Of a DNA stretch of 64,000 bases, positions 4,646-20,760 are shown in pieces. Both the position numbers and the translations under genes were made by a program. Below the pieces are notes generated by a model, which was given only the letters and a program-made list of their open reading frames with translations, had not been told where the DNA came from and made no database searches. Numbering within the stretch: the stretch's first letter is position 1; every line of letters starts with the position of its first letter. Source of the stretch: Actinomycetes bacterium (GTDB lineage Bacteria > Actinomycetota > Acidimicrobiia > Acidimicrobiales > RAAP-2); contig JAJYYG010000054.1 of assembly GCA_021801235.1 (NCBI GenBank), positions 2,794 to 66,793 of the forward strand, in the 5' to 3' direction.

Positions 4646-4883
4646 CCCTAGCCAGCGAGCTCCGGGGGCAACCTCGGGGGCTCCTCAGGGGGAGATGGTC
4701 CTGCGGCCGGTCGGCCCGTCGGCAGGGGGTAGGACCCCCGCAGCAGCGCGCCGAGCAAGCTACGGGGGTCCTCGGGCCGGACTGGACATTCGAACAACCG
4801 ATCGCCGAGGCCAATTCTGGCCAACCTGCCCGCGGATCGCGAATCGAGCAGCGACTGCTTCAGGAGTCTCCTAGCCTTGCCCG

Positions 4884-5471: not shown

Positions 5472-5496
5472 CCCGGCACGGTCGGCGCGTCCACCG

Positions 5497-6300: not shown

Positions 6301-6370
6301 CGGCCGGGGCACGACCGGTCCGGGCGGCCGAGCACCCCGACAGGCGGTCAGGCCTCGCGTCCCGCAGCGG

Positions 6371-7471
6371 TCACTCGGGCATGCCCGCCCTCCCGGGGAG
6401 AGCGGGCTCCACCGGTGCCCCCGGGGCAGGCTCGGTGAGGTCGAGATGGGTCGGCAGGCCCTCGCCGCGGAACAGGCCCGACGCGGGGGTCGCCCGCCCG
6501 AGCGCGTCGGCGGCCAGCACCATGGCCCCCGCCGTGTACGTCGACCGTTCCAGCGGGGGGTAGGTCGCCTCCTCCGGGTAGACCATCCCCGTCCAGTAGG
6601 TGCCGTCCTCGTTCCGGAGGGCCTGGGCCCAGGCCAGCAGGTCCCGGGCCTCCCCGTCGCGCTCCAGCGCGTCCAGCGCCAGGACGCACTCCGCCGTCTC
6701 CGCCGCGGTGACCCACTCGCCGGTCGAGACACACCGCACCCCGAACCCCTCCATCACGAACGCGTCCCACGACCGGTCGATCAGCGCGTGGGCGGCGGCG
6801 CCGGTCACCGCGCCCGACAGCACCGGGTAGTACCAGTCCATGGCGAACTCCACCTTCGGGGCGAAGGCCGCCGGGTCGTGGGCGACAGCGTGCGCCAGCC
6901 GGCCGGCGGCGAACTCCCAGTCCGGCCGCTCGTGCCCGAGCGCTTCGGCCGTGGCGACGGCGCACCGGAGGCTGTGGTAGATCGACGAGGAACCGGTCAG
7001 GAGGGCGTACTCCTCCCGCCGTCCGGAGGCGTCGAGCGACCACGAGATGGAGCCGTCCGGTCGTTGCCAGCGTAGGACGAAGTCGATCCCCGCGGCCACC
7101 GCCGGCCAGAGCGACTCGAGACCGGCGGCGTCCCCGGTGGAGACGTACCGGTGCCACGCCCCGGCGGCGAGGTAGGCGCAGACGTTGGTGTCGAGCCTCG
7201 GGTCCTTGATGCCGTGCGCCAGGTAGTAGTTGAACCAGCTCCCGTCGGGGAGCTGGTTGTCGACCAGCCACCGGTAGGCGCGGTCGGCCTCGTCGTCGAA
7301 GCCGCAGGCGGTGAGGGCCATCGCCGCCTCGACGTGGTTCCACGGGTCGCAGTGCCCGCCCGGGAACCAGGGGATCATCCCGTCGGCGCGCTGGACGTCG
7401 GCGATCGAACGGGCGGTCGCCAGCACCTGTGCGGCGGTGAGGATGCCCGGGACCTCCGGGACCGCCCTCAT
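6371..7471 (-). CDS. Prenyltransferase / squalene-oxidase-repeat (alpha-alpha toroid, terpene-cyclase-like) protein
   Basis: Re-called start at the ATG at 7471 (MRAVPEVPG...), residue 158 of track ORF 6371..7942. Repeated DG-aromatic motifs are QRADGMIPWF, QLPDGSWFNY, QRPDGSISWS and NEDGTYWTG. The ATG overlaps the upstream stop in ATGA (7468-7471). Confidence 0.65.
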   Translation of the reverse strand: MRAVPEVPGILTAAQVLATARSIADVQRADGMIPWFPGGHCDPWNHVEAAMALTACGFDDEADRAYRWLVDNQLPDGSWFNYYLAHGIKDPRLDTNVCAYLAAGAWHRYVSTGDAAGLESLWPAVAAGIDFVLRWQRPDGSISWSLDASGRREEYALLTGSSSIYHSLRCAVATAEALGHERPDWEFAAGRLAHAVAHDPAAFAPKVEFAMDWYYPVLSGAVTGAAAHALIDRSWDAFVMEGFGVRCVSTGEWVTAAETAECVLALDALERDGEARDLLAWAQALRNEDGTYWTGMVYPEEATYPPLERSTYTAGAMVLAADALGRATPASGLFRGEGLPTHLDLTEPAPGAPVEPALPGRAGMPE

Positions 7472-8319
7472 CCGCCCGAGCCCACCGTCGACGCCCGGCG
7501 CTGGGGTGTGCCGGGCCCGCCCTCCCCCGGCGCGACCTCGCTCGCCGCCGCCCGGGGCACGATCGACCTGGCGCCGGACAGCGGGGCGATTGGGGGTCCG
7601 TCCGGCGACGGCTTGGCCAGGTACACCACCAGGCTCTTGCCGACCAGCGGGTTGAGCACCCGATCCGTCCACCGGGTGAGCTTCGGTGCCTTGGTGATGT
7701 CCCACACCAGCAGCCGGTGGTAGGCGGCGACCGCCGGGTGGTCCTCGTTGGTCGTCCCCACCAGGCAGCGGAGCCACCAGTAGGGGGCGTGCAGCCCGTG
7801 GGCGTGGGCGTGGGCGGTCGCCACCATGCCGGCGGACTCCAGCCGCCCGACCAGCTGGCTCCGGCGGTAGATGCGCACGTGGCCGCCGGGGACGTCGTGG
7901 TACTCGTCGGAGAGGGCCCAGTTGACGAACTCGGGGCCGCAACGGGGAACGGTCACCGCCATCGTCCCCCCGGGCCGCAGGACCCGTGCCAGCTCGTCGA
8001 TGGCCACCTGGTCGGCGGGGATGTGCTCGAGGACCTCGGAGGCGATCACCCGGTCGAAGGCGCCGTCGGGGAACGGGAGCCGGAGGGCGTCCCCCCGGAC
8101 CGCCCCCACCCGGGCGCGCTCCGCGTCGAGCTCCCCGGCGTCGGCCATGGCCCCGAACGTGTCACGCACGGCGCGGACCTCGTCCGCTCCGGCGTCGAAC
8201 GCCACCACCTCGGCCCCGAGGCGGGCGGCCTGGAAGGCGTGGCGCCCGAACCCGCAGCCGAGGTCGAGGAGCCGGTCGCCCGGCCGCACCCCCAACCTGG
8301 CATAGTCGACGGTCAGCAC
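7468..8319 (-). CDS. SAM-dependent methyltransferase (Methyltransf_11 type)
   Basis: Re-called start at the GTG at 8319 (VLTVDYARLG...) inside track ORF 7468..9501. Motif I is LLDLGCGFGRHA, with post-I AFDAG and RPGGTMAV. The start overlaps the end of the upstream glycosyltransferase (GTGCTGA). Confidence 0.85.
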   Translation of the reverse strand: MLTVDYARLGVRPGDRLLDLGCGFGRHAFQAARLGAEVVAFDAGADEVRAVRDTFGAMADAGELDAERARVGAVRGDALRLPFPDGAFDRVIASEVLEHIPADQVAIDELARVLRPGGTMAVTVPRCGPEFVNWALSDEYHDVPGGHVRIYRRSQLVGRLESAGMVATAHAHAHGLHAPYWWLRCLVGTTNEDHPAVAAYHRLLVWDITKAPKLTRWTDRVLNPLVGKSLVVYLAKPSPDGPPIAPLSGARSIVPRAAASEVAPGEGGPGTPQRRASTVGSGG

Positions 8320-9818
8320 GGCGCTCCGTTGCTTCGGGACGCGGCGTCGGCGCTGCCGGAGGCACGGATTCGGAATTCCGGCCCAGCCCGCTCCCGGGCG
8401 GCGGCCAGCAGCTCCCGGTACTCCGCGGCGGTCCCGGACGCGGTGACCTGCCAGGTGAACCGCCCCAACACCCGCTCGCGGCCGGCGGCCCCCAGACGGA
8501 GCCGCAGCCCGGGGTCGTCGAGCAGCCGGCCGATGGCGGTCGCCAGCGCGCCCGGATCGTCGGGTGGGACGAGCAGACCGGTCACCCCGTCGGTGCCGAC
8601 CACCTCGGGGAGCGCCCCGCCGGTGGTGGCGACCAGGGCGACGCCGCAGGCCATCGCCTCGATCGCCGGCAACGAGAACCCCTCGTAGAGGGACGGCACC
8701 ACCGCCACCTCCGCCCGCGCGTAGTTGCGGGCGAGCTCGTCGTCGCTGATCCCGGTGATGCACCGCACCACCGGGGCCAGGTCCAACCGCTCGATGGCAC
8801 GGGCCACCCGGCCGTCGGGACGGGGGTTGCCGATCACCACCAGCTCGATGGATCGTTCGGTGCGGAGCTTGGCCACCGCCTCGAGGAGGGGGACCAGCCC
8901 CTTCATCGGGACGTCGGACGACGACGTCACCATGATGCGGCCCGGGACCGGCACCACCTCGGGCCGCGGCCGGAACACCGTGTGGTCGACGCCCACCGGC
9001 ACCACCGTCATCCGGGCCGGCTCCACCCCCATCTGGGATGCGATGTCCCGCTTCGACGACTGCGACACCGTCACCACCCGGGGCAGGGCCCGGGCCACCC
9101 GCACCTGCATCCGGAGGAAGCCGAACCAGCGCCGCTGGGTGAAGCGCTGCCACGGGTTGGCGGCGTGGCTGAGCGCGAGCTGGCGGTCGACGGTGATCGG
9201 ATGGTGCAGGGTCGTCAGCACCGGCCAGCCGTCCTCGATCATCCCGAGGATCCCGTTCCCGAGGCACTGGTTGTCGTGCACCAGGTCGAACTCCGTGCGC
9301 CGGGCGGCGAGAAGGCGCCGGGCGCGCAGGCTGAACGTCCAGGGCTCCGGGAACCCGGCGGTGCACATGACCCCGAACTCGAGGGCGTCGGCCGGGCTGT
9401 GGAACTCGCGGAGGTGGGGCACCCGGAAGGGGTCCGGGTCGCGGTAGAGGTCGAGGCTGGGGACGGGCGTGAAGCCCACGCCGTCGTCGACCTCGGGCCA
9501 CGGCTGGCCGGCGAACACCTCCACCGAGTGGCCGAGGGCGACCAGCTCGCGGGTCAGGTGCCGCGTGTAGACACCCTGCCCGCCACAGCGCGGGTTGCCC
9601 CGGTAGACGAGGAACGCGATCCGCAGACCGTCGGGCCCCGGTGGGCGGGGCGGGATCCGTTCGGGGACCGGAGGCGGGATCGCCGGGCCCTTGACCTTGT
9701 GACGCCTGAGCCAGAGACTAGGCACGGTCCGCCCTGGTGGATGGGTGCATAAGTCAGCAATCCTCCCCCGCCCGGGCGCCCCGGCGCAAACTCCACCGGG
9801 CGGTGCCGGCGCCGGCAT
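8313..9818 (-). CDS. GT4-family (GT-B fold) glycosyltransferase
   Basis: Typical GT4 core: RIAFLVYRGNPRCGGQGVYTRHL...EGFSLPAIEAMACGVALVATTGGALPEVV. The first ~60 aa of the track ORF are Pro/Arg-rich, so the true start is uncertain. Confidence 0.8.
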   Translation of the reverse strand: MPAPAPPGGVCAGAPGRGRIADLCTHPPGRTVPSLWLRRHKVKGPAIPPPVPERIPPRPPGPDGLRIAFLVYRGNPRCGGQGVYTRHLTRELVALGHSVEVFAGQPWPEVDDGVGFTPVPSLDLYRDPDPFRVPHLREFHSPADALEFGVMCTAGFPEPWTFSLRARRLLAARRTEFDLVHDNQCLGNGILGMIEDGWPVLTTLHHPITVDRQLALSHAANPWQRFTQRRWFGFLRMQVRVARALPRVVTVSQSSKRDIASQMGVEPARMTVVPVGVDHTVFRPRPEVVPVPGRIMVTSSSDVPMKGLVPLLEAVAKLRTERSIELVVIGNPRPDGRVARAIERLDLAPVVRCITGISDDELARNYARAEVAVVPSLYEGFSLPAIEAMACGVALVATTGGALPEVVGTDGVTGLLVPPDDPGALATAIGRLLDDPGLRLRLGAAGRERVLGRFTWQVTASGTAAEYRELLAAARERAGPEFRIRASGSADAASRSNGAPC

Positions 9819-9870
9819 GTGCCGGACGGGACCGGCCAGCCCTGCGCCCGGCCAGCTCCGCCCGCCCGGA

Positions 9871-11280
9871 TCAGCGTCCGCCCGCGTCCGCCGCCTTCAG
9901 CATCTGTCGGATGCCTTCCTCGATGCCCCGGCTGAGCACGTCGAGGTCGCCGGTGGTGTCGAAGTCGCCGGTGATCCCGAAGTTGACCTCCCCGTTGTAC
10001 GAGAAGATGGCGACCCCGATCCGCATCTGGGCGCCCAGTGGCACGTACGGGTAGGCCTTGACCATCCGCCTTCCGCAGACGTAGAGCGGGATCTGGGGGC
10101 CGGGCACATTGGTGGTGACGGTGTTGAGCTGGTGCTGGGCCATCCGGGTGGAGAGCCGCATCGCCAGGGCCAGCAGCATCGGCGGGGCGAAGCCCGACAT
10201 CGAGGTCAGTGCCTCCCCGGCCAGCGCCTGCTTCGACTCCTTCAGGCCCTCCATCTGGGCGCTCACCGCGGCCAGGCGCTCTCTGGCGTCGGTGATCGCC
10301 ACCGGGAGCTCGGCGAACATGGCCGAGACCTTGTTCTGGAGCGTGCCGTCGCCGACCGCCAGACCGTGGTCGTCCCGGGGGCGCACCGACACCGGGACCA
10401 GGGAACGGACCACGCGCTCGACCGGCTCCCCGCGCTCGAGGAGGAGCTCCCGGAAGCCGTTGGTGATGGCGGCCAGCACCACGTCGTTGAAGGTGCCTCC
10501 CAGCGCCCTGCGCACCGTCTTGATGTCGCTCACCGAGGTCGACGCCCATGCGTACCGCCGGTGGGGTCCCAACGGGCCGTTCAGGCTCGAAGGCGGTGTC
10601 GGCTTGACCAGGCCCACCATGGCGGTGAGCCCCCGGACCACCGATCGGGCGTGCCCGACCACCTGCCCGGGCACCGCGGCCGCCGCCCGCACCGCCTGGA
10701 CCTGCTCGTACGGGCTGTGCAGGAGGTCGAGAGAGGACCGGATCGCCAGCTCCACGCCCGACGGGGCCGGGCGCGGCTCCCACCGGGTCGGGAGCGGCAC
10801 GGGCGCGTCCGGTGACAGGTCCATGATCACGGCGAGCAGGTCGGTCCCCGAGACGCCGTCCACCATGGCGTGGTGGGTCTTCGCGAACAGGGCCCAGTGC
10901 CCGTCGTCGAGACCCTCGACCACCCAGATCTCCCAGAGCGGCTTGGACCGGTCGAGCGGCTGGGACATGACCCGTCCGACCAGCTTGCGGAGCTCGACCT
11001 CGCCCCCCGGAGCGGGCAGCGCGCTGTGCCGGACGTGGTACTCGATGTTGAAGTGCGGGTCGTCGACCCACACCGGCCGGCCCAGCTCGAACGGGAGGTG
11101 CCGCACCACCGACCGGTAGCGGGGCACCCGGTCGAGCTTGCCCTCGATCATCGCCACGATGTCCTCGAAGGCGGGCTGGGGTCCCTCGAAGATCCCGATC
11201 GAGGCGATGTGCATGTGGCTCACGCCGTCCTCGATGTGGAGGAACGTGGCGTCCAACGGGCTCAGTCGGTCGACGTCCAT
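9871..11280 (-). CDS. Wax ester synthase / diacylglycerol acyltransferase (WS/DGAT)
   Basis: Re-called ATG at 11280 (MDVDRLSPLDATFLHIED...), preceded by GGGGGTGG. Active-site motif HHAMVDG. C-terminal NVPGP...PLY region. 469 aa. Confidence 0.9.
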   Translation of the reverse strand: MDVDRLSPLDATFLHIEDGVSHMHIASIGIFEGPQPAFEDIVAMIEGKLDRVPRYRSVVRHLPFELGRPVWVDDPHFNIEYHVRHSALPAPGGEVELRKLVGRVMSQPLDRSKPLWEIWVVEGLDDGHWALFAKTHHAMVDGVSGTDLLAVIMDLSPDAPVPLPTRWEPRPAPSGVELAIRSSLDLLHSPYEQVQAVRAAAAVPGQVVGHARSVVRGLTAMVGLVKPTPPSSLNGPLGPHRRYAWASTSVSDIKTVRRALGGTFNDVVLAAITNGFRELLLERGEPVERVVRSLVPVSVRPRDDHGLAVGDGTLQNKVSAMFAELPVAITDARERLAAVSAQMEGLKESKQALAGEALTSMSGFAPPMLLALAMRLSTRMAQHQLNTVTTNVPGPQIPLYVCGRRMVKAYPYVPLGAQMRIGVAIFSYNGEVNFGITGDFDTTGDLDVLSRGIEEGIRQMLKAADAGGR

Positions 11281-11431
11281 CAGTCCACCCCCGGATCCTC
11301 TGCTCGGCCTGCGTCCGAGGCCCAGGCTGCCGACGGTACTACCGGCTCCCGGCCCGTGCCCGGCCGGTGTGCCCGGCCGGTGTGCCCGGACGCCCGCCGG
11401 CGCACCGACCGTGCACAACCCGCATCTGCGC

Positions 11432-12409
11432 TCACGCCGAGCTCCGCGACCCGGTTGCGCCGAGTGCCTCGAACCAGCCCGCCGCGATCCGCCGGACCGT
11501 CTCGGCTCGGGCGGCCTCGGCGACACGAGCCGACCGGCCCTCGTCCATGGCCCGGAAGCCCATCACGCCCAACATGCCCGCCGACGGCTCCACCCGCACC
11601 ACCCGTGCCCCCGCCGCCCGCAGCCGGCGCACCTCCCGATCGAGGCGGCGGTGCGCCGACCAGCGCACCAGGGCGTCCGGCCTCCGGCCGGGCAGGGACT
11701 CGGCCGACATGGGAGAGACGACCACCACCACCTCGGGCGCCCCGCGCCGCAGGACGTCCGCACTGGTGGGCGAGTGCACGCCACCGTCGAAGTACTCCAC
11801 ACCGCCGATCGTCACCGGGCAGAAGTACGCCGGGATCGCGCACGAGGCGAGGACGGCAGCGGCCAACGGAGCGGGGGGCGAGCCCTCCCGGCCGAACACC
11901 ACCCGGGTGCCGTCGTCGCGCCGGACGGCGCAGATCCACAACCGGTGGGGCCAGTGGTCGCCCACCATGCGGTGGAGCGGTGCTGCCCGGTCGCGGACGT
12001 CGACCCGGCCGGCCGGCAGCAACGTCATGGCGACCACGTCGGGCCGGACGGTCCACGGGCGCCGGGCCACCCGGGCGAGCAGGGCCGGCGCCGGCAACCG
12101 CAACGGCCGGAGCCACGACCCCGCCGAGGGGGCGGGGAGGTCGCCCTGGTCGGGGAGGACCCGGGCGACGAGGGCGGCCCCTGCCGGCGACAGCGGTCCG
12201 CCGCCGGCCATCGCCTCGAGGTCCGCCGCCGGGAGCCCGAGCCGGAGCAGCGTGCCGGTGATCGCTCCGGCCGAGGAGCCGACGACCACGTCGGCTGTCC
12301 GCGGGTCCCAACCGAGCACCTCGTCCAGAGCCCCCAGCACGCCGGCGTGGTAGGCCTGGCCGACGACACCGCCGGCTCCGAGCACCAGTCCGATTCCGTC
12401 TCTTCCCAC
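11432..12409 (-). CDS. Patatin-like phospholipase
   Basis: Re-called GTG at 12409 (VGRDGIGLVLGAGGVVG...). Oxyanion motif GAGGVVG, nucleophile elbow GSSAG, catalytic Asp in YFDGGV. Confidence 0.85.
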   Translation of the reverse strand: MGRDGIGLVLGAGGVVGQAYHAGVLGALDEVLGWDPRTADVVVGSSAGAITGTLLRLGLPAADLEAMAGGGPLSPAGAALVARVLPDQGDLPAPSAGSWLRPLRLPAPALLARVARRPWTVRPDVVAMTLLPAGRVDVRDRAAPLHRMVGDHWPHRLWICAVRRDDGTRVVFGREGSPPAPLAAAVLASCAIPAYFCPVTIGGVEYFDGGVHSPTSADVLRRGAPEVVVVVSPMSAESLPGRRPDALVRWSAHRRLDREVRRLRAAGARVVRVEPSAGMLGVMGFRAMDEGRSARVAEAARAETVRRIAAGWFEALGATGSRSSA

Positions 12410-12618
12410 GATCGCCCCTCGTCCCCCTGTTCCCGGCACCGTCGGCCCTGTTCCCGGCACCGTCGGCTGCACCGGCGCGTCCGACGGACCAGAGCCCGAA
12501 CGGCGAGCGGGTCCACAGTAGCCAGACCGGTCCCGCCCCCGGCCGGACGGCCGCGATCGGCACGCGATGGCAACCACGCCGGTCGCCGTTCCCAGCCCCA
12601 CGCCGAGCGCCCCGTCCT

Positions 12619-13947
12619 TCAGAGGCCGAGGGCGACGCCGAACCAGCCCAGGATGGTCTGGAGGACCAGGAAGGTGGCGAAGGCGCCCACCGACACCACC
12701 GTGGCGAACCCCACCCACCGCCCGAGCCTCCCGTTGGCCGCGTCCCCCAGCAGCGATCTCCGGTTGGCGAGCACCAGGATGAACGCCAGCGTGACCGGGG
12801 TGATCACCCCTTCGAGCACCTGGGTGTTGATGATCAGGTTGAACAGGTTCCCCGGGAGGAGCACCACCGCGGCGCCGATGGCGATCTGGGCCGTGAACAG
12901 GCCGAGGAACAGGGGAGCCTCCCGGAAGCTCCGGGAGACGGACCGCTCCACCCCGATGGACTCGGCCAGCGCGTAGGACGTCGAAAGGGGGACCACCGCC
13001 GCCGCCAATGCCGACGCCCCGAGGAGCCCGAGGCCGAACAGCGCCTCGGCGAACCGGCCGGCCAGGGGCTCCAACGCCTTGGCCGCCTGGGCCGCCGAGC
13101 TCAGCGCCCCGGAGCCGCCGAGCACCGAGGCGGTGGCGATGATGATGAACATGGACACCAGGTCGGAGACGATGGCTCCGCTGACCGCGTCGACCCGCTC
13201 GTAGCGGTACTCGTCCGGCCCGATGCCGCGGTCGACCACCGCTCCGGCCGTGTAGAGCTGGATGTAGGGGGTGATGGTGGTGCCGATGAGCGCCACCCCC
13301 ACCAGCAGGAAGGCGTTCGACCGCAGGAAGTGCGGGAGCAGGGTGTTCGCCACCACCGCATGCCAGTCGGGGTGGCCGAAGAACATGGCGATGGGGTAGG
13401 TGATGAACACCAGGGAGAGCAGGAGGAAGATCCGCTCGGCGTAGCGGTAGGACCCCAGCAGCACCAGCATCCAGATCGCCAGGGCGGCGAGCGGCACCGA
13501 CAGGTACCGCGACACGCCGAACAGCTCGAAGGCCGCACCGATCCCGGCGAACTCGGTGACCACCAGCCCCACGTTGGCGATGGCGAACGCCGCCACCGCG
13601 AAGGCCGACAGCCGCAGGGAGAACTGCTCCCGGATCAGGGCGGCGAGCCCCTTGCCGCTGTAGGCGGCCAGGCGGGCGGTCATCTCCTGGACGGAGATGT
13701 ACCCCACCGTGACCACCACCATGAAGAACAGCGGTCGGTAGCCGAACTGGGCCCCGGCAGAGGCGTAGGTGGCGACCCCGCCGGCGTCGTTTCCGGCGCT
13801 CGCTGCGATGAGACCGGGCCCGATGGCGGCCAGGTAGGGCCACAGGCGGCGGACCCGGCGGCGGACGCTCCGGTCGGAGTCGGACCGGTCGGACCGGTCG
13901 GACCGGGACGCGGACGCTCCCGTGCCGGCATGCACGCCTGCGCTCAC
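12619..13947 (-). CDS. Nramp/SLC11-related transporter with non-canonical metal-site motifs (NRMT-like)
   Basis: 442 aa and polytopic. The TM1 region GPGLIAASAGNDAGGVATYASAGAQFGY aligns by eye to the Nramp GPG...DPGN...GAQFGY block, but DPGN reads NDAGG. The TM6-like IGTTITPYIQLY replaces the canonical ...MPH... block. Confidence 0.85.
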   Translation of the reverse strand: MSAGVHAGTGASASRSDRSDRSDSDRSVRRRVRRLWPYLAAIGPGLIAASAGNDAGGVATYASAGAQFGYRPLFFMVVVTVGYISVQEMTARLAAYSGKGLAALIREQFSLRLSAFAVAAFAIANVGLVVTEFAGIGAAFELFGVSRYLSVPLAALAIWMLVLLGSYRYAERIFLLLSLVFITYPIAMFFGHPDWHAVVANTLLPHFLRSNAFLLVGVALIGTTITPYIQLYTAGAVVDRGIGPDEYRYERVDAVSGAIVSDLVSMFIIIATASVLGGSGALSSAAQAAKALEPLAGRFAEALFGLGLLGASALAAAVVPLSTSYALAESIGVERSVSRSFREAPLFLGLFTAQIAIGAAVVLLPGNLFNLIINTQVLEGVITPVTLAFILVLANRRSLLGDAANGRLGRWVGFATVVSVGAFATFLVLQTILGWFGVALGL

Positions 13948-13963
13948 CGCCGCCGTCGCCGCG

Positions 13964-15400
13964 TCACTGCAGGAGGCGCGGGAAGTGGAGCCGACCGCGC
14001 TCGGGCGAGAGCGCGTCGAGGACGTCGTCGGCGAGGATCCGTCCGACCGGCCGACCGTCGTCGACCACCACCACCGACAGCCGGCGGGCCTCCACCAGGC
14101 GCTCGGCCACCTCGTCGACCCGGGCGTGGCTGTCGACCGAGACGGGGTGCGCCTCCCCGGCCAGCGCGCCCAGCCGCGTCCCGGGTGGGCTGACCACCAG
14201 CTTCATCAGCGGGAGATCCCAGACCAACCGGCCCTCTTCGTCCACCAGCGCCACCGCGTCGAGCTCGTCGGGCAGGTCGTCCCACTCGGACAGACGGGCG
14301 ACCACGTCGCCCACCGTGTCGGTCACCGCCGCCACCACCAGCTCCGTCGTCATGAACCCTCCCGCCTCGTCCTCGGAGTAGGCGAGCAGGTGCACCAGGG
14401 GCGCGGCCTTGCGGAGCGGCATGGCACCGAGGAGCTCCTCCCGCTCGTCGCGATGCAGGTCGCGGAGCGCGTCGACCGCCTCGTCCGGCTCCATCTCCGC
14501 CAGCAGCTCCGCTGCCCGGGAGGGGTCCGCCTCGCGGAGCAGTGCGGTGAGCTCCTCCGGGTCCATCTCCTCCAGCGCGTCCGCCACCTCGTCGGCGGGG
14601 AGCGACTCGAGCAGGCTCTGGCGCTCCGGACGCATGAGGTCCTCGAGGAGATCGGCCAGCTCACCGGGCCGCAGCCGCTCGAGCCCGGCGTTGGTCGTCC
14701 GCAGGCGAACCTCGGGCGCCGATCCCTCCGCCGGCTCTCCGAAGGGTTGGATGGCGGCCCAGTCGATCACGCGCTCGGGGGTGGGCAGGGGCCGCCACCG
14801 CGCCGGTCCCAGGCGGCGCAGGAGGCTCTGGGCGGAGACGTCCACCCCCACCAGGTGGAACCGGCCGGCCACCGGGGCGAGGTACAGGTCCGACGCCCGG
14901 ATCACCTGGACGCCGTCCACGTCCACCAGCTGATGATCGAGCACCTGGGTGGCCAGGGTGACCTCGCCGGAGCGGGGGGCGAAATCGCGGAGGTCGAGGC
15001 GGGCGTCCCGCAACAGCACCTCGGTGTGGTGGATGAGATCGATGGCGGAGGCGTCGACGAACGCCGCCCTGCGGCCCACCCGGACCACGAGACCGGTCAC
15101 CGGAGGGTAGGTCTCACCCCCCGTCCAGCGGCAAAGGACGTCGACCAGGCGCCCGATCTCCGCCCCGCTCTGGTTGCGGACCGGGCGTCCCACCAGTCCG
15201 GCCAGCGAGACGATCGCGTCGCGGATCGCCCGCGAGGCGAGCAGGCGCTCGGAGCGGTGCCGGAGCGGTCGCGGCCGATGGAGGGGATGGCGCTCCGATC
15301 GCGGGCGTCGACCCCGCAGGGTGCGTCCACGACCGGTCGGCTCGGACCGGTCGTGGTCATAGTCGTGGTTCGGAGGATCGTCAGGAAGGGGGCGGGTCAT
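13964..15400 (-). CDS. Soluble PRC-barrel / MgtE N-domain / CBS-pair protein (no MgtE membrane domain)
   Basis: 478 aa. The central acidic helical repeats (EVADALEEMDPEELTALLREADPSRAAELLAEMEPDEAVDALRDL) are typical of MgtE_N and are followed by two CBS-like modules. I see no hydrophobic C-terminal domain. It ends 16 nt upstream of the Nramp-like start. Confidence 0.8.
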   Translation of the reverse strand: MTRPLPDDPPNHDYDHDRSEPTGRGRTLRGRRPRSERHPLHRPRPLRHRSERLLASRAIRDAIVSLAGLVGRPVRNQSGAEIGRLVDVLCRWTGGETYPPVTGLVVRVGRRAAFVDASAIDLIHHTEVLLRDARLDLRDFAPRSGEVTLATQVLDHQLVDVDGVQVIRASDLYLAPVAGRFHLVGVDVSAQSLLRRLGPARWRPLPTPERVIDWAAIQPFGEPAEGSAPEVRLRTTNAGLERLRPGELADLLEDLMRPERQSLLESLPADEVADALEEMDPEELTALLREADPSRAAELLAEMEPDEAVDALRDLHRDEREELLGAMPLRKAAPLVHLLAYSEDEAGGFMTTELVVAAVTDTVGDVVARLSEWDDLPDELDAVALVDEEGRLVWDLPLMKLVVSPPGTRLGALAGEAHPVSVDSHARVDEVAERLVEARRLSVVVVDDGRPVGRILADDVLDALSPERGRLHFPRLLQ

Positions 15401-15835
15401 CGGGTACCTCGGGGTTCGGGTGCAACTCGCACCGCCGAACCGGACAGGACCGGTCCTCCGCCGGGTCAGCGAGGGGCGGTCGTCACCGGAGCGGCGAGGC
15501 GGAGTGTGCGGACAGGACGTTCACCACGGGCGTGCATCCACGCGCACTGGGGGGTTCTCCCTGCTCCATGGACCTCACCTCCTGTCCTACCTCTCCAGCG
15601 CCGCGTTCCTCCCGGGGCTGATCGCCGTCGACCTCAGCGGCAGTCCCTCGCCGGTCCGGCACCGCCGGTCCGCGCAGCCGGTCCGCGCCCGGCTGGTCCG
15701 GCACCGCACCCGGTCCACCGGAAAGCAGACTACCGGACCGGGTGCAGCGTCGCAGGTGAACGGGGCGCGTCCGAGATGAACGGCACGTGTCGTCAATCCT
15801 CCACCGGGCCGCGCCGCCCCCGCAGGTGGTGGTGG
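15401..15835 (-). promoter_or_regulatory. Long structured 5' leader/promoter region of the MgtE-N/CBS-Nramp operon
   Basis: 435 nt with no credible long ORF. Contains GGACAGGA (15587-15580 on the minus strand) with two downstream complementary copies of UCCUGUCC (15517-15510 and 15449-15442). A strong hairpin GGUUCGG-C-GGUGC-GAGUU-GCACC-CGAACC (15413-15441) abuts the GAGG ribosome-binding site. Confidence 0.45.
15483..15569 (-). CDS. Candidate 28-aa leader peptide (uORF) MEQGEPPSARGCTPVVNVLSAHSASPLR
   Basis: The ATG at 15569 is preceded by AGGAGGTGAGG with 8-nt spacing from AGGAGG. It contains a Glu-Pro-Pro motif and overlaps one arm of the alternative pairings in the leader. Purely a sequence-based call. 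Confidence 0.25.
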   Translation of the reverse strand: MEQGEPPSARGCTPVVNVLSAHSASPLR

Positions 15836-17935
15836 TCAGCCCGCGCAGGTGGTGGTGGTCGGCGGGCCGTTGGTGCCGGTCGTCCCGGTCGGCACGTACG
15901 GGTCGGGATTGGGACCGTTGGCGAACCGGTCGGCGATCCAGTGGATCATGTCGCCGGCGTACACCGGGATCACCCCGGCGTGGCTCTGGCCCGGGTAGAT
16001 CCACCGCTCCACGTCCTGGCCGATGGCGCACTCGTGCTGCTCGAGGAGCTGGGTGGTCACCGGCGGGATCTGGTGGTCGTTCCCGCCCTGGGGGATCAGC
16101 AGGGGCGCCGCGCTCGGCGTCGTGAAGTTCCCTGGGTCGTTGGCCTGCAACAGCGGCTTCCATGCCGGCACGGTGAACGGATCAGTGGGGACGATGGACT
16201 GCAGCGAGTACTTGTTCAACGTCGACTGCAGGAAGCCGTAGCAGCCCTGCCCGAGAATCGGGAGCAGCGACATCCCGGTCGGGGTGACCACGTCCGACAG
16301 CGGGGCGATGGCGTTGCCGTAGGCCACGTTCAGCCCGGCACCGGCCATGAACAGGTAGAACTGGTAGGGGCTTCCGTCGAGGAAGGCGTAGATGGCTTCG
16401 AACTGGGAGGGGGGCGCCCCGGCGACCACGCCCTTCAGGTGGAGCTCGGGTGCGTACGACGCGGCGATGTCCAACCCGAACATGGCCGTCTGGCCGCCCT
16501 CGGAGTGACCCCAGATGACGTAGTTGTCGCTGGCGTGGGCACCGGGGAGGAGCCGGGCGGCCCGCACCATGTCGATGGTGTTGCGGGCCGAGCTGACCCC
16601 GGCGAGGTAGGGCAGGATGCCCGGGGTCCCTTCGCCCTGGTAGTCGCTGGCCACCACCTCCCAGCCCTGGGCGAGCATGGTGTTCTGGACGCTGTCGGGT
16701 ACCGCCTGGGACGGGTCGAGGGACGGGGCGCACTGGGGGGCCATCCCGTTGGTGCCGTGCGCCCAGCTCACCACCGGGTACCCGCCGGCCGGGGGTGCCG
16801 TGGGCGGCACCATCACCAGGCCGGTGACCGCCACCGGACGGCCGAGCTCGGTCTCCGAAAGGTACATCACCAGATAGGTGGTCCCGTCGACGCCGGGCGA
16901 GGCCACCTGCTCGTACTTGATGATCGTGCCCGGGGGGCCCTGCGGGAGCTGGGTCGGCACCGCGTAGAACGACGGGAGGCCGGGAGCGAGGACCGACCCG
17001 GTGGTCGCCCCCGCCAGGGAGATGCCCACCACCGGCTTGCTCAGGGGGATCCCCCCCATCGACCCGCTGAAGGTCGCGTCCCCGAAGGCGAAGACGCCAC
17101 CGTCGGCGCCGACCAGCCAGTAGCCGTTGCCGTCGGCGGTGGAGGTCATCCCGACGATCGGCCGGTTGAGGTGCAGGGAGCCGGTCGAGCCGTGGAAGCC
17201 GGCATCGCCGAAGGCGAAGATGCCGCCGTCCGCGGCGACCAGCCAGTAGCCGTTCCCGGTGACCGACGACTGGATGCCCACGATGGGAGCGTTCAGGTGC
17301 ATGCCGCCGGTGGAGCCGTAGAACGTGGTGTCCGCGTAGTTGAAGCCGAAGGAGAAGACCCCGCCGTCGGAGCCGACCAGCCAGTAGCCGTTGCCGGTGG
17401 GGCTGGCCGCCATCCCCACGATCGGCGCGTTCAGGTGGGTGCCCCCCATCGAGCCGTAGTACCCGGCGTCCCCGAAGGCGAAGATGCCGCCGTCCGCGGC
17501 GACCAGCCAGTACCCCTTGCCGTCGTTGGACGGTGCCATCCCCACGATCGGCGCGTTCAGGTGGGTGCCTCCCATCGAGCCGTAGAAGCCGGCGTCGCCC
17601 ATGGCGAACACGCCGCCGTCGGAGGCGACCAGCCAGTACCCGGCCCCGTCGGGGGTGGGTGAGGACCCCACGATCGGAGCGTTGAGGCGCATGCCGCCGG
17701 TGGACCCGAAGTACCCGGCGGAGCCGAACGAGAAGATGCCACCGTCGGCGGCGACGAGCCGGTATCCCGACGCTTGCACATGGGCGGCCGGCGCCGCGGC
17801 CGGAACTGCAGCCGAGGCCGCGACGGGCGCCACGGCGACGACCGAAGCCGCGACCAGCGCCACGGCCAGCGCCGCTCCCGCCACGAGGTTCACTGTTCGC
17901 GACTGCAACCGACGACCACTGCGGCGATGTTCCAC
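15836..17935 (-). CDS. Secreted protein: six ~42-aa GYWLV..DGG.F.FGDA repeats fused to a LIP-family (secretory lipase) alpha/beta-hydrolase domain
   Basis: Re-called GTG at 17935 (VEHRRSGRRLQSRTVNLVAGAALAVALVAASVVAVAP..., a signal/anchor) inside track ORF 15836..20095. Six repeats follow. The C-terminal domain has the nucleophile elbow GHSEGG and the lipase-like GYPVVSWAHGT. Confidence 0.8.
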   Translation of the reverse strand: MEHRRSGRRLQSRTVNLVAGAALAVALVAASVVAVAPVAASAAVPAAAPAAHVQASGYRLVAADGGIFSFGSAGYFGSTGGMRLNAPIVGSSPTPDGAGYWLVASDGGVFAMGDAGFYGSMGGTHLNAPIVGMAPSNDGKGYWLVAADGGIFAFGDAGYYGSMGGTHLNAPIVGMAASPTGNGYWLVGSDGGVFSFGFNYADTTFYGSTGGMHLNAPIVGIQSSVTGNGYWLVAADGGIFAFGDAGFHGSTGSLHLNRPIVGMTSTADGNGYWLVGADGGVFAFGDATFSGSMGGIPLSKPVVGISLAGATTGSVLAPGLPSFYAVPTQLPQGPPGTIIKYEQVASPGVDGTTYLVMYLSETELGRPVAVTGLVMVPPTAPPAGGYPVVSWAHGTNGMAPQCAPSLDPSQAVPDSVQNTMLAQGWEVVASDYQGEGTPGILPYLAGVSSARNTIDMVRAARLLPGAHASDNYVIWGHSEGGQTAMFGLDIAASYAPELHLKGVVAGAPPSQFEAIYAFLDGSPYQFYLFMAGAGLNVAYGNAIAPLSDVVTPTGMSLLPILGQGCYGFLQSTLNKYSLQSIVPTDPFTVPAWKPLLQANDPGNFTTPSAAPLLIPQGGNDHQIPPVTTQLLEQHECAIGQDVERWIYPGQSHAGVIPVYAGDMIHWIADRFANGPNPDPYVPTGTTGTNGPPTTTTCAG

Positions 17936-17953
17936 GACGACCCTGCTCTCTCT

Positions 17954-17995
17954 GGCTCTGTTCTGCCGGCTCTGTTCTGCCGGCTCTGTTCTGCC
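17954..17995. repeat. 3 x 14-bp perfect tandem repeat GGCTCTGTTCTGCC
   Basis: Read directly as copies at 17954-17967, 17968-17981 and 17982-17995. It lies in the divergent spacer between the lipase gene (start 17935, minus) and the acyl-CoA dehydrogenase gene (start 18140, plus). Confidence 0.9.
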
Positions 17996-18139
17996 GGTCC
18001 GGCTCGGCCGACCCTTCCACGGGTCTACCACCGGTGCTGCGACCACCACCACTCCTGACGGCGGTTCCCCGGCGACCGCACCCCAGTCGACACTCGCCAC
18101 GCCCTTGGGGCGGCGCTCACCGCCGGGTAATGTCGGGCC

Positions 18140-19375
18140 ATGGACCTCACCTACCCCGCCGAAACGGAGCCGTTCCGATCGGAGATCCGCGCCTGGCTCG
18201 CCGACCACCTCCCCGCCGGGTGGGGCCAGCCCGGCTTCTCGATGACCCCGGATGAGAAGAAGACGTTCAACCGCGAATGGACGAAGACCCTCTTCGACGG
18301 TGGGTGGATCTGCGCCTCGTGGCCGAAGGAGTACGGGGGCAAGGGTCTCTCGCTGATGGAGTCGGTGGTGCTCAACGAGGAGTTCGCCCGGGCCGAGGCT
18401 CCCCTGCGGGCGGACTTCTTCGGCGACACCCTGGTGGGCCCGACCATCCTGCAGTGGGCGACCGAGGAGCAGAAGAAGCAGTTCATCCCCGGCATCCTCG
18501 ACGGGACCATCTCGTGGTGCCAAGGGTTCTCCGAGCCCGATGCCGGCAGCGACCTGGCGTCCCTCAAGACGCGGGCGGAGCCCGACGGGGACGAGTGGGT
18601 CATCAACGGGCAGAAGGTCTGGACCACCCAGGCCCAGTTCGCCGACTACATCTTCCTCCTGGCACGCACCGACCCGGACGCGCCCAAGCATGCCGGGATC
18701 TCCTACCTGCTGGTGCCGATGAAGCAGCCCGGCATCGAGGTGCGGCCGATCGAGCAGGTCGACGGGAGCGCCGACTTCAACGAGGTCTTCTTCGCCAACG
18801 CCCGCTGCCCGAAGGAGAACGTCGTCGGCGGGGTGAACAACGGATGGAAGGTGGCGATGACCACCCTCGGGTTCGAGCGCGGCTCCTCGGCCACCACCGG
18901 CCACCGGCGCTTCCTTCGGGAGCTCGACCAGATCATCGACGTGGCCCGCCAGAACGGGCGCCTCGCCGATCCCGTGGTCCGCCAGCGGTTGGCCGCGGCG
19001 TGGACCCGGGTGAAGATCATGGAGATCAACGGCTACCGGTCGCTCACCGACGCGCTCAACGGGACCCACCACATGGCCGCGCTCGGCGCCTGCAACAAGA
19101 TGTTCTGGTCCGAGCACCACAAGGAGACCATGGAGCTGGCCATCGACATCCTCGGGCTCGACGGACAGATCCTCACCGGGACCTACGACGACTCGGTCGA
19201 CGAGCGGGTCCGGCGGGGACGGGACGACTACCCGGTCAGCGATCTCCAGGCGTCGTTCTTCTTCTCCCGGTCGGAGACCATCTGGGGTGGGACCGCCGAG
19301 ATCCAGCGCAACATCGTCGGCGAGCGGGTGCTCGGCCTCCCCAAGGAGCCCAAGCCGGCGAGCGTCGGCGGCTGA
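18140..19375 (+). CDS. Acyl-CoA dehydrogenase family protein
   Basis: 411 aa. Motifs: GFSEPDAGSDLASLKTRA, WTTQAQFADYIFLLART, and the C-terminal GGTAEIQRNIVGERVLGLP. Confidence 0.9.
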   Translation: MDLTYPAETEPFRSEIRAWLADHLPAGWGQPGFSMTPDEKKTFNREWTKTLFDGGWICASWPKEYGGKGLSLMESVVLNEEFARAEAPLRADFFGDTLVGPTILQWATEEQKKQFIPGILDGTISWCQGFSEPDAGSDLASLKTRAEPDGDEWVINGQKVWTTQAQFADYIFLLARTDPDAPKHAGISYLLVPMKQPGIEVRPIEQVDGSADFNEVFFANARCPKENVVGGVNNGWKVAMTTLGFERGSSATTGHRRFLRELDQIIDVARQNGRLADPVVRQRLAAAWTRVKIMEINGYRSLTDALNGTHHMAALGACNKMFWSEHHKETMELAIDILGLDGQILTGTYDDSVDERVRRGRDDYPVSDLQASFFFSRSETIWGGTAEIQRNIVGERVLGLPKEPKPASVGG

Positions 19376-19461
19376 TCCCAACCGCGCTCGAACGGTCCCG
19401 GCGTCCCCTCCGTCCGGCGGCTGCCGTTGACCGGAGCGGCTGCCGCTGACCGGGGTTCGGT

Positions 19462-20760
19462 CTACGGCACCAGGGGTGCCGGCTCCGCCTCCACGGTCTC
19501 GACCGCCAGGCGCTCGGCCGCCCTGGCCGCGGCCGCCTGGACCCTGGTGCCCTGTGACGTGTGCCGCCAGGCCAGCGCGGCGGCGGACAGGACCGTGGCG
19601 GCCGCTCCGACCGCGATGGCGACGCGCGGGTTGGTCCACTGGGCGATCGCCCCGACCAGGGGGGCGCCGATCGGTGTGCTGCCCAGGAACGCCATGGCGT
19701 ACAGGGCCATGACCCGTCCACGCATGGCCGGGTCCGACTGGAGCTGGAGCGAGGCGTTGGCGGTGGCGATGAACCCGATCGACGCCGCCCCCATGAACAC
19801 GATCAGCACCAGAGCCACGGCCAGCGTCGGGGCGAAGGCCACGCCCCCGAGCAGCAGGCCGAACACCAGGGCGAGGGCCTGGAGGAGGCGGGCGGTCGGC
19901 CGCGCCCGGTGCGCCGCCAGGAGGCCGCCGACCACCGCTCCGACCCCCATGGCGGACGTCAGCAACGAGTAGGTGCCCGCCCCGCCGTGGAAGGTCGTCT
20001 TGGCCAGGAGTGCCAGGGTGACCTGGAAGTTGTAGGCGAAGACGCCGATGACTGCCATGGCGAGAAGGGTGTTGCGCAGCGGAGGGGTCCGCCACACGTA
20101 GCGGAACCCGTCCCGCACCTGGCCCTTCGCCCGCTGCACCGGTTCGGTCGGGTAGAGCTCCGCGCTCCGCATCATGGAGAGGCCGACCAGCACCGCCACA
20201 TAGGAGGCGGCGTTGACGAAGAAGCAGGCGGCCAGCCCGACGACGACGATCACCACCCCACCGATGGCCGGGCCGATCACCCGTGAGGCGTTCATCACGA
20301 CGGTGTTGAGGCTGACCGCGTTGGGGGTGTCCTCACGGCCGACCATCTCCATCACGAACGTCTGGCGGGCCGGGTTGTCGAACAGGTTGACCACCCCGAG
20401 CAGGGTGGCCAGCACGTAGACCTGCCAAAGCTCCACCACGTGAGCGGCGTCGAGCACGCCGAGGGCCAGCGCCAGGATGCCTCCGGCCGCCTGGGTGCAG
20501 TAGAGAAGGCGGCGCTTGTCGGCCCGGTCGGCGACCAGGCCGCCGAACGGGCCGAAGAGCAGCATGGGGAGGAACTGGAGCCCGGTCACGATGCCGAGGT
20601 CGACACCGCTGCCGGTGAGATGGAGGACGAGCCAGGCCTGGGCGATGGCCTGCATCCACGTCCCGGACACCGAGATGAGCTGGGCGGTGAAGTAGAGGCG
20701 GTAGTTCCGGACATGCAGCGACCGGAACGTCTGGTGCCAGGCGGCCCGGAACGCGGTCAC
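19462..20760 (-). CDS. MFS transporter (MFS_3 / EntS-like)
   Basis: 432 aa with about 12 hydrophobic segments. The N-terminus FRSLHVRNYRLYFTAQLISVSGTWMQ is typical of this MFS subfamily. It overlaps the marR-family stop by 4 nt. Confidence 0.85.
   Translation of the reverse strand: MTAFRAAWHQTFRSLHVRNYRLYFTAQLISVSGTWMQAIAQAWLVLHLTGSGVDLGIVTGLQFLPMLLFGPFGGLVADRADKRRLLYCTQAAGGILALALGVLDAAHVVELWQVYVLATLLGVVNLFDNPARQTFVMEMVGREDTPNAVSLNTVVMNASRVIGPAIGGVVIVVVGLAACFFVNAASYVAVLVGLSMMRSAELYPTEPVQRAKGQVRDGFRYVWRTPPLRNTLLAMAVIGVFAYNFQVTLALLAKTTFHGGAGTYSLLTSAMGVGAVVGGLLAAHRARPTARLLQALALVFGLLLGGVAFAPTLAVALVLIVFMGAASIGFIATANASLQLQSDPAMRGRVMALYAMAFLGSTPIGAPLVGAIAQWTNPRVAIAVGAAATVLSAAALAWRHTSQGTRVQAAAARAAERLAVETVEAEPAPLVP

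Follow-up and report, generated by a model that had tools for sequence, protein, structure and literature searches.

An actinobacterial NRMT-type SLC11 carrier gene paired with a soluble, MgtE sensor-like partner and a putative Pro-Pro leader

Introduction

The NRMTs of the SLC11 family carry the metal-site signature DxxG plus TxxA/T, in contrast to the DxxN plus A/CxxM of canonical Nramps (PMC8806188). The first of them to be characterised came from Clostridium acetobutylicum in 2014 (PMC4072509), and an NRMT structure is available for the Eggerthella lenta protein, EleNRMT (Ramanadane et al. 2022; PMC8806188, PDB 7QIA). EleNRMT is an uncoupled Mg2+/Mn2+ transporter with no H+ coupling, and its T224A mutation abolishes transport of Mg2+ but not of Mn2+ (PMC8806188). 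Transport of Mg2+ by NRMTs is not coupled to protons, so the inflow that the membrane potential drives must be held in check by some brake; how these carriers are restrained has been a standing question since the MgtE-like neighbour of their genes was noticed in 2014. Here we describe a two-gene operon predicted to encode a magnesium-type carrier of the Nramp family and a soluble partner that resembles a magnesium sensor. It lies in a stretch of 64,000 nucleotides (nt), hereafter the window, from an Actinomycetes bacterium of the order Acidimicrobiales (GenBank assembly GCA_021801235.1, contig JAJYYG010000054.1, positions 2,794 to 66,793 of the forward strand).

The MgtE-like neighbour was reported by Shin et al. 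[quoted passage not shown] They speculated that the MgtE-like fragment gives cytoplasmic feedback regulation or has chaperone activity (PMC4072509). In their experiments, the A. capsulatum partner gave no rescue when expressed alone and had no added effect when expressed with its carrier, Acp2977, which acted mostly as a Mn2+ transporter (PMC4072509). A first-pass annotation of the window, made from the DNA letters, had named E. lenta as the source of the first characterised NRMT and had known of no functional study of the pairing; both statements give way to the 2014 work, which began with C. acetobutylicum and reported the pairing together with this minimal co-expression test (PMC4072509). 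The PRC-barrel and CBS content of the partner is not mentioned by Shin et al. (PMC4072509), the EleNRMT structural paper does not discuss a partner (PMC8806188), and in the literature searched we found no later work that addresses it. The pairing is already known and minimally tested, and the role of the partner is that of a candidate regulator.

Control of Mg2+ transporter genes by leaders has been described in other systems. Mg2+ stimulates translation of mgtL and corL, unmasking Rho-loading sites (PMC12360218), and the Mbox of M. tuberculosis is a platform of SD1, anti-SD, and SD2 elements (SD, Shine-Dalgarno) with Rho termination (PMC12810186). The locus in the window is classed by homology as a new actinobacterial member of the known NrmT/MgtE-like module. 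Several features of it appear to be undescribed. The partner has a PRC barrel, is of a soluble form that ends in a conserved tail, and keeps Mg4, Mg6, and Mg7 ligands while having lost the ATP site; in place of an M-box, the operon has a putative Pro-Pro leader.

Results

Organization of the operon

The operon is on the minus strand of the window, whose GC content is 70-75% throughout. Both open reading frames (ORFs), and the 16-nt gap between them, were found where the first-pass annotation had placed them. The features of the locus, from 5' to 3' on the minus strand and with the evidence in brackets, are as follows.

15578-15582, minus strand: leader Shine-Dalgarno, a strong site, GGAGG
15483..15569, minus strand: putative leader ORF, 28 codons, MEQGEPPSARGCTPVVNVLSAHSASPLR (only conserved block upstream of the partner, blastn)
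15546-15557, minus strand: leader core, GAA CCC CCC AGT
15401..15482, minus strand: spacer of 82 nt from the leader ORF stop to the partner start, with a GC-rich hairpin and the GAGG ribosome-binding site of the partner
13964..15400, minus strand: whole partner ORF, 478 amino acids (aa), ATG start, GAGG 7 nt upstream
15245..15400, minus strand: partner residues 1-52, basic extension rich in Arg, Pro, and His (alignment; predicted local distance difference test, pLDDT; GC content at third codon positions, GC3)
14702..15244, minus strand: partner residues 53-233, predicted PRC-barrel module (AlphaFold2, AF2, models; fold search; Pfam PRC match of the E. lenta homologue)
14369..14701, minus strand: partner residues 234-344, predicted MgtE_N acidic helical domain with D274, D306, and D310 (Pfam; PDB sequence and fold matches)
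13997..14368, minus strand: partner residues 345-468, predicted CBS pair with D459, D462, and R439 (Pfam; fold; residue mapping)
13964..13996, minus strand: partner C-terminal tail GRLHFPRLLQ and stop codon (alignment; comparison of 42 representatives; hydropathy)
13948-13963, minus strand: partner-carrier intergenic gap, 16 nt, CGCGGCGACGGCGGCG
12619..13947, minus strand: NRMT-type SLC11 carrier, 442 aa, GTG start (Pfam Nramp; EleNRMT match)

The carrier has the metal-site signature of NRMTs

The 442-aa protein had been annotated as a relative of SLC11/Nramp transporters, and this identity is borne out by family models and by matches to PDB sequences. Pfam Nramp (PF01566) matches residues 58-406 at 259 bits, the NCBIfam MntH model scores 128.7 bits, under its cut-off of 430, and the best sequence match in the PDB is EleNRMT (7QIA, E value 3e-101), with canonical Nramps at 1e-16 (DraNramp) or weaker. 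When the carrier was aligned to DraNramp and EleNRMT, AGNDAGGVATY fell on the DPGN of DraNramp, where EleNRMT has DAGG, and IGTTITPY fell on the DraNramp segment IGATVMPH, with EleNRMT reading TTIA at TxxT. The earlier reading of NDAGG in place of DPGN was right in that the metal site is substituted; its N precedes the conserved Asp, and the true change is DPGN to DAGG. As had been supposed, the substituted residues occupy metal-site positions: D54 is kept, and Asn is replaced by G57, Ala by T223, Met by T226, and His by Y228. The two motifs map as follows.

13777-13788, minus strand: carrier motif of transmembrane helix 1 (TM1), D54-A-G-G57
13264-13281, minus strand: carrier TM6 motif, T223-T-I-T226-P-Y228

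The carrier has DxxG instead of DxxN in the unwound part of helix 1 and TxxA/T instead of A/CxxM in the unwound part of helix 6, including a Thr that matches T224 of EleNRMT. The proton-pathway residues whose loss marks NRMTs are two histidines of helix 6b and polar residues on helices 3 and 9; both histidines are substituted here (Y228 and T233), and the Glu of helix 3 (E132) and the Gln of helix 10 (Q376) are kept. By these residues and by overall similarity, the 442-aa protein is classified as an NRMT-type SLC11 carrier that is closer to characterised NRMTs than to canonical Nramps, and it is expected, by homology to EleNRMT, to transport Mg2+ and Mn2+ without proton coupling.

The partner gene is linked to NRMT-type carrier genes across genomes

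Linkage was scored in one genome per species, at 80 loci with carriers 60-82% identical to that of the window. Most of these loci come from Acidimicrobiia metagenome-assembled genomes (MAGs); the others include some Pseudonocardiales, a Mycobacterium, an Oryzihumus, and a Gemmatimonadota MAG. By tblastn, 76 of the 80 species genomes have a partner directly upstream of the carrier and on the same strand as it; this count was used because over-extended ORFs in high-GC DNA distorted those based on ORFs. A second sample of 80 loci (L081-L160) was taken from a metagenome scan anchored on EleNRMT. Its E. lenta-type loci (L081, L082-L141) also have a PRC-MgtE_N-CBS gene directly upstream of the carrier gene, and the EleNRMT gene has a partner of its own (L081, 4515-5909, plus strand, 464 aa), which is separated from it by 4 nt and ends in a C-terminal membrane helix (LFLALYTLVLLQIIGY). 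Gaps between partner and carrier genes in related loci are mostly -4 to +5 nt, with a median of 4, and the genes that flank the pair are not conserved. Adjacent pairs number roughly 130. These data show that the adjacency of partner and carrier genes is not due to chance and that their linkage, which the first-pass annotation had anticipated, is strong and phylogenetically wide.

Several loci differ in their arrangement. Four (L015, L017, L020, and L029) have a carrier and the Pro-Pro leader, but the DNA fetched for each (4.6-13 kb) contains no partner gene. One genome (L009) has two divergent partner-carrier pairs (1243-4466, minus strand, and 4439-7308, plus strand); the second carrier is 543 aa long, with DxxG/TxxA and a long C-terminal extension, and its partner is 33% identical to that of the window. 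At L160 (3314-7269, plus strand) and L159, two SLC11 paralogues in tandem come after the partner gene and read VDNDAGG and VDNDPGG, the latter with Gly at the Asn position and the Pro retained, and the DPGG-type carriers at L154-L156 are without a partner. At L157 (1649-4412, plus strand), the gene directly after that of an NRMT-type carrier encodes a full-length MgtE channel (MgtE_N, CBS, and pore), not a pore-less partner. At the E. lenta locus, a tRNA gene is found just upstream, and no M-box is present there.

A natural fusion of partner and carrier was considered and rejected. The lone fused ORF (L026, 262-2976, plus strand, 904 aa) is explained by a frameshift of 1 nt: read in the adjacent frame, the conserved tail RGRFHFPRLLQ is still followed by its stop codon. 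An indel introduced in sequencing or assembly is a likely source of the shift. When fusions were sought by length, nothing longer than 604 aa was found among the best 150 PRC-module representatives.

The partner resembles the cytosolic module of MgtE behind a PRC barrel

Pfam matches in the partner are MgtE_N at residues 243-344 (77 bits) and a single CBS at 418-465. Its MgtE_N region (residues 234-344) has a net charge of -18, and residues 234-468 align to the cytosolic domains of the T. thermophilus and E. faecalis MgtE proteins (phmmer E value 8e-21). An AF2 model built from an alignment of 34 homologues is confident over residues 234-468, and this part was matched by Foldseek to the MgtE structures 2YVY, 2OUX, and 8GPS (E values 1e-17 to 1e-18, target TM-scores 0.75-0.83). 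The MgtE pore domain (PF01769, five helices, D432) has no Pfam match in the partner, and the NCBIfam mgtE model scores 77.8 bits versus a cut-off of 232.75. A membrane segment was not found in the partner, whose peak Kyte-Doolittle hydropathy over 19 residues is 1.31 versus 2.2-2.7 in membrane-anchored relatives. Judged by its domain content, the partner is not an MgtE channel.

The N-terminal half was assigned mainly by fold. A separate model of residues 53-242 gave PRC-barrel proteins as all of its top 50 Foldseek matches, among them CdpB1/B2, the reaction-centre H subunit, CdvA, MTH1859, and RimM. The model has a pLDDT of ~90 at residues 65-135, which form one barrel, and is low past residue 157; the second, beta-rich PRC-like segment that follows the first barrel is modelled with low confidence. 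Pfam PRC (PF05239) scores 14.4 bits on the window partner, under the cut-off of 21.2, and of 34 close homologues only 3 match this family at E ≤ 0.01; the homologous partners of E. lenta (42.8 bits) and L160 (25.3 bits) pass the threshold. In the alignment, residues 53-233 are conserved to the same degree as the rest of the protein. Residues 1-52 are variable, basic, and predicted to be disordered (pLDDT <50), and their GC3 is 0.73 versus 0.93 for the remaining gene; the ATG at 15400 is the sole canonical start codon of the partner before codon 66. Folds and hydropathy thus agree with the earlier description of a PRC-barrel-like N terminus followed by MgtE_N and CBS, with no membrane domain.

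Partners occur in two forms, a soluble one in the clade of the window, with the tail RGRxHFPRLLQ kept across the clade, and an E. lenta-type one with a hydrophobic C-terminal helix. The tail sits at the place of the MgtE plug helix and at that of the C-terminal membrane helix of E. lenta-type partners. The partner family is a large one: a word-indexed search gave 2886 matches at E ≤ 1e-5, and the PRC module alone gave 1446 clusters at 50% identity. Many PRC-module representatives (P0192, P0200, P0255, and others) are ~242 aa long, with no MgtE_N or CBS match; they may be stand-alone PRC proteins, split partners like that of C. acetobutylicum, or gene fragments. We know of no functional link between PRC-barrel proteins and metal transport.

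The partner retains Mg2+ ligands of MgtE and has lost the ATP contacts

The Mg2+ sites of T. thermophilus MgtE (TtMgtE) were assigned by Maruyama et al. 2018 (PMC5882242). In that channel, E59, D91, D95, D247, and D250 build Mg7, Mg4, Mg6, and part of Mg5, and mutants in these residues are impaired in Mg2+-dependent closure (PMC5882242). Conservation of the aligned positions was scored over 42 partner representatives (<80% identical) that reach down to 26% identity.

Mg4: D91/D247 in TtMgtE, D306/D459 in the partner, invariant in 42/42
Mg6: D95 in TtMgtE, D310 in the partner, acidic in 42/42
Mg7: E59 in TtMgtE, D274 in the partner, acidic in 42/42
Mg5: D226/D250 in TtMgtE, R439/D462 in the partner, with the D462 position acidic in 41/42
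Mg2, Mg3: E258, D259 in TtMgtE, a basic tail R-G-R-L in the partner, not retained

Position 439 is Arg in the soluble partner clade (32 of the 42) and Asp or Glu in the membrane-anchored clade. The side-chain contacts of ATP in TtMgtE, Y170, R187, D188, N203, and F227, correspond to A382, M399, K400, E416, and R440 of the partner, in a part of the alignment that has ~30% identity and may be off by 1-2 residues, and these positions are variable across the partner family. Sensing of Mg-ATP through the MgtE ATP site, which the first-pass annotation had allowed for, was rejected on this ground, with five contacts that read A, M, K, E, and R and are not conserved; ATP is probably not the ligand of the partner. 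A role as a Mg2+ sensor is favoured because the partner keeps the acidic residues of Mg4, Mg6, and Mg7. As aligned, it keeps the cytosolic ligands of these three sites, but neither the ATP pocket nor the pore contacts.

A conserved Pro-Pro leader precedes the operon

When the 600 nt upstream of the partner were compared across loci by blastn, one conserved block was found, the leader. It consists of a strong Shine-Dalgarno site, a start codon, and a short ORF that opens M-x-x-(G/D)-E-P-P-S, and its core (GAACCCCCCAGU, also written GAACCCCCCAGUAG) is conserved at the nucleotide level. A search for the composite pattern GGAGGNG-N8-26-GARCCYCCNAGT gave one occurrence in the 64-kb window, against an expectation of 0 from shuffles. 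Among the 80 genome loci, 62 have the pattern, each a single time and in all cases upstream on the coding strand. A profile search with nhmmer finds the leader in 67 of the 80 loci, and two of the misses are without upstream DNA. The pattern never occurs in the 80 E. lenta-anchored loci (L081-L160), and the same leader is absent from the E. lenta-type, L143-type, and L160-type clades. The 4 partner-less loci keep the leader directly before the carrier gene, and therefore it belongs to the transporter operon and not to the partner. Scans between and around both genes gave no sigma-70-like promoter or intrinsic terminator. Window positions 11000-17000 have no Rfam match at E ≤ 1, M-box included, and no M-box was found in 11 related loci scanned, the E. 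lenta locus among them. We found no description of the leader in the literature searched, and it is apparently undescribed.

The leader is a putative translated ORF whose Shine-Dalgarno site, start codon, Pro-Pro pair, and placement are all conserved. A different explanation is that the block is a protein-binding site in DNA or RNA, or part of a structured RNA, with the ORF incidental. This would account for conservation that is partly at the nucleotide level, in which all 55 loci scored have AGT in the leader and 51 of them GAA, despite a gene GC3 of 0.93, and in which the codon after AGT is AGN whether Ser or Arg is encoded; an ORF of 20 codons also means little by itself, because stop codons are rare in DNA of 73% GC. 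Evidence for translation comes from a strong, well-spaced Shine-Dalgarno site and a start codon that are kept in every case, from an E-P-P-S frame that survives shifts of the start by one codon, from synonymous GAG, CCT, and CCG variants that leave E-P-P intact, and from an ORF length that clusters at 20-21 codons in 41 of 66 loci. Nor does the block match an Rfam family, and its C-run has no complementary partner in cis, neither a G-run nor CUACUGG. We give the non-translated explanation a small chance.

The body of the leader ORF is rich in C and poor in G (C/G of 1.5-2.0 over ~75 nt), and the fold of the window leader has a z score of -2.2. Covariation support for a leader structure was sought and had to be dropped: RNAalifold gave only a helix that pairs the Shine-Dalgarno GGAGGU with ACCCCC, and because every pair in it is invariant, this pairing is not evidence for structure.

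Genes around the operon

The operon lies among genes of lipid metabolism: a WS/DGAT wax-ester synthase (9871-11526, minus strand), a patatin-like phospholipase (~11432-12520, minus strand), a lipase, and an acyl-CoA dehydrogenase. The lipase gene (15836-18061, minus strand) encodes a secreted-looking protein with six tandem repeats of ~42 aa (GYWLVAxDGGIFAFGDAxFxGSxGGxxLNxPIVG), which have no Pfam family match, and, after them, a secretory lipase (LIP) domain. This gene is missing from most related loci, and in them an acyl-CoA dehydrogenase gene is directly upstream of the leader and divergent from it; the corresponding gene of the window (18140-19375, plus strand) is commonly the divergent upstream neighbour of the operon in related loci. 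A conserved third gene of the operon was rejected, as the patatin-like and lipase neighbours are not conserved in other genomes. Lists of ORFs from this region need homology support, because 73% GC yields spurious long ones: many overlapping ORFs of up to 1419 aa on both strands of window positions 7468-20095 are such artefacts, and one of them (11432-13843) runs through the carrier gene in another frame.

Discussion

A proposal for feedback control of the carrier

Starting from the observed protein identities, residue conservation, gene linkage, and leader conservation, we favour, with moderate confidence, a reading in which the operon encodes a Mg2+/Mn2+ uptake carrier that is inhibited in trans by a Mg2+-sensing partner and whose expression is set by a proline-decoding leader. 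The carrier, uncoupled from protons, would import hydrated Mg2+ (and Mn2+), driven by the membrane potential. The partner would be the cytoplasmic sensor half of an MgtE channel (the N domain and CBS pair) fused to an N-terminal PRC-barrel module. As cytoplasmic Mg2+ rises, the ion would bridge the N domain's acidic surface and that of the CBS pair, in the way seen at Mg4, Mg6, and Mg7 of MgtE. We infer that the two proteins interact physically and that the regulation is inhibitory, with the compacted partner using its PRC barrel and C-terminal tail to dock on the carrier from the cytoplasmic side and blocking or locking it; at low Mg2+ the module would open and release the carrier.

The signal sensed by the leader would likewise be Mg2+. 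Slow decoding of the Pro-Pro codons at low Mg2+ might hold the ribosome and allow read-through or translation of the operon, and fast decoding might expose a Rho-loading or anti-Shine-Dalgarno sequence and turn the operon off. The Pro-Pro codons lie in the C-rich, G-poor stretch, and such control would be analogous to that of the enterobacterial mgtL and corL.

Several points count against this proposal. No natural fusion of partner and carrier was found. The weightiest points are that co-expression in the A. capsulatum test, the single one published, left the rescue of Mg2+ auxotrophy unchanged and that NrmT transporters worked in B. subtilis without a partner (PMC4072509); an inhibitor is not expected to improve rescue, because the co-expression test measured growth rescue at low Mg2+. 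The substrate of the window carrier is not certain, because the A. capsulatum carrier acted mostly as a Mn2+ transporter. In the soluble clade, half of Mg5 is lost (D226 to R439), and a basic tail stands in place of the plug-helix sites Mg2 and Mg3. At the leader, the proposed helix of the Shine-Dalgarno site and the C-run is invariant and has no covariation support, predictions of C-run pairing by partition function are heterogeneous between loci, and the invariant AGU and preferred GAA point to a constraint at the RNA level that the proposal does not account for.

Alternative roles of the carrier and the partner

One alternative, which we consider unlikely, is that the physiological substrate is Mn2+ or divalent cations broadly and that the partner answers Mn2+ or a general cation load. 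An A. capsulatum protein of the NrmT group, which has an adjacent MgtE-like gene and no M-box, fully rescued a Mn2+-transport mutant and partially rescued a Mg2+-transport mutant; EleNRMT moves Mn2+ besides Mg2+, and the window operon is likewise without an M-box. The missing M-box loses weight beside the E. lenta operon, which also has none though its carrier moves Mg2+. Further, the window carrier has the full DxxG/TxxT, and with it the Thr on which Mg2+ transport by EleNRMT specifically depends (T224A), and the ligands that the partner keeps belong, in MgtE, to Mg2+ sites of low, millimolar affinity.

More doubtful is a positive role, in which the partner activates the carrier, aids its assembly or stability, or serves as a metallochaperone and takes the ion at the inner mouth of the carrier. 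Chaperone activity was raised as an alternative by Shin et al., tight translational coupling fits a stoichiometric subunit, and a membrane helix of its own makes the E. lenta-type partner look like an auxiliary subunit. Such a factor is hard to reconcile with carriers that function without a partner, both heterologously and in liposomes, with 4 related genomes that keep carrier and leader and have lost the partner, and with the homologous module of MgtE, which is inhibitory when Mg2+-bound.

That the partner acts on some other target, being merely co-expressed with the carrier and reporting Mg2+ status elsewhere, is improbable: PRC barrels do bind varied partners (RimM, CdvA, CdpB), ~242-aa PRC-module proteins without MgtE_N or CBS exist, and no fusion or coevolution evidence for a partner-carrier interaction was obtained, but the genes stay adjacent, with stop and start codons that overlap, in Actinomycetota, Coriobacteriia, and other clades, the pair has been duplicated as a unit, and no other neighbour is conserved.

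Feedback inhibition in trans, the reading that we prefer, can be extended to a layered Mg2+ homeostat, undescribed for SLC11. Here the MxxGEPPS leader (GAACCCCCCAGUAG) would replace the M-box through mgtL-like, Mg2+-dependent decoding of CCC-CCC in Actinomycetota, and a detached, PRC-equipped MgtE sensor would close the proton-uncoupled carrier in trans once Mg2+ links its N domain to its CBS pair, with the membrane-anchored form acting on EleNRMT. In this full form the proposal is speculative, and we think it rather unlikely.

The Pro-Pro leader, if it works as proposed, would carry the control of Mg2+ transporters by proline decoding beyond enterobacteria, into Actinomycetota and another transporter family. 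For the partner, the analysis offers D274, D306, D310, D459, and D462 as candidate sensing residues and the PRC barrel and conserved C-terminal tail (the membrane helix in E. lenta) as candidate docking elements. EleNRMT, already purified and solved, has its own partner gene next door.

Comparison with known systems

The closest described systems are the NrmT operons of 2014 (C. acetobutylicum Ca_c0685; A. capsulatum Acp2976/Acp2977), in which a carrier of the same clade lies immediately downstream of a gene for an MgtE-like cytoplasmic domain, and for which the same feedback idea was put forward. Many of those operons carry an M-box; from the window operon it is absent, and a Pro-Pro leader ORF is found in its place. 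The C. acetobutylicum partner is split into two genes, and the window locus comes from an Acidimicrobiia-like high-GC actinobacterium.

The EleNRMT locus also has a PRC-MgtE_N-CBS partner before the carrier gene, with a 4-nt gap. Its partner ends in a membrane helix, whereas the window partner is predicted to be soluble, with the tail RGRLHFPRLLQ. The two carriers are 43% identical over their full length and share DxxG, the Mg2+-critical Thr, the helix 3 Glu, the helix 10 Gln, and the loss of both TM6b histidines. At the Met position EleNRMT has Ala and the window carrier Thr, both of which the published signature allows, and at the first His position EleNRMT has Trp and the window carrier Tyr.

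With T. thermophilus MgtE (2YVY, 2ZY9), the partner is predicted to share the fold of the N domain and CBS pair, and it keeps the ligands of Mg4 (D91/D247), Mg6 (D95), and Mg7 (E59) and half of those of Mg5 (D250). It differs in that the pore domain is missing and the module is a separate polypeptide, in having ~180 extra N-terminal PRC-barrel residues, and in having no E258/D259 plug-helix ligands, an Arg in place of D226, and no ATP residues.

The mgtL (mgtA) and corL (corA) leaders of Salmonella and E. coli are likewise short, proline-containing upstream ORFs before a Mg2+ transporter gene. The C-rich stretch of the leader described here could act as a Rho-loading or anti-Shine-Dalgarno element, as in those leaders and in the Mbox of M. 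tuberculosis, which shows such logic at work in Actinobacteria. The leader has no sequence similarity to any of them and no aptamer, and it precedes a transporter of another family. In contrast to mgtL and corL, the GEPPS motif of the window (GAACCCCCCAGU) is conserved at the nucleotide level, and the mechanism suggested for it is drawn by analogy.

The N-terminal module of the partner is predicted to have the fold of PRC-barrel proteins such as the reaction-centre H subunit, CdpB1/B2, CdvA, and RimM, a resemblance at the level of the fold alone (Foldseek E values 1e-4 to 1e-2, target TM-scores ~0.3-0.7). Within the reaction centre, the barrel of the H subunit caps the cytoplasmic face of a membrane complex, which makes it a plausible analogy for docking of the partner on its carrier.

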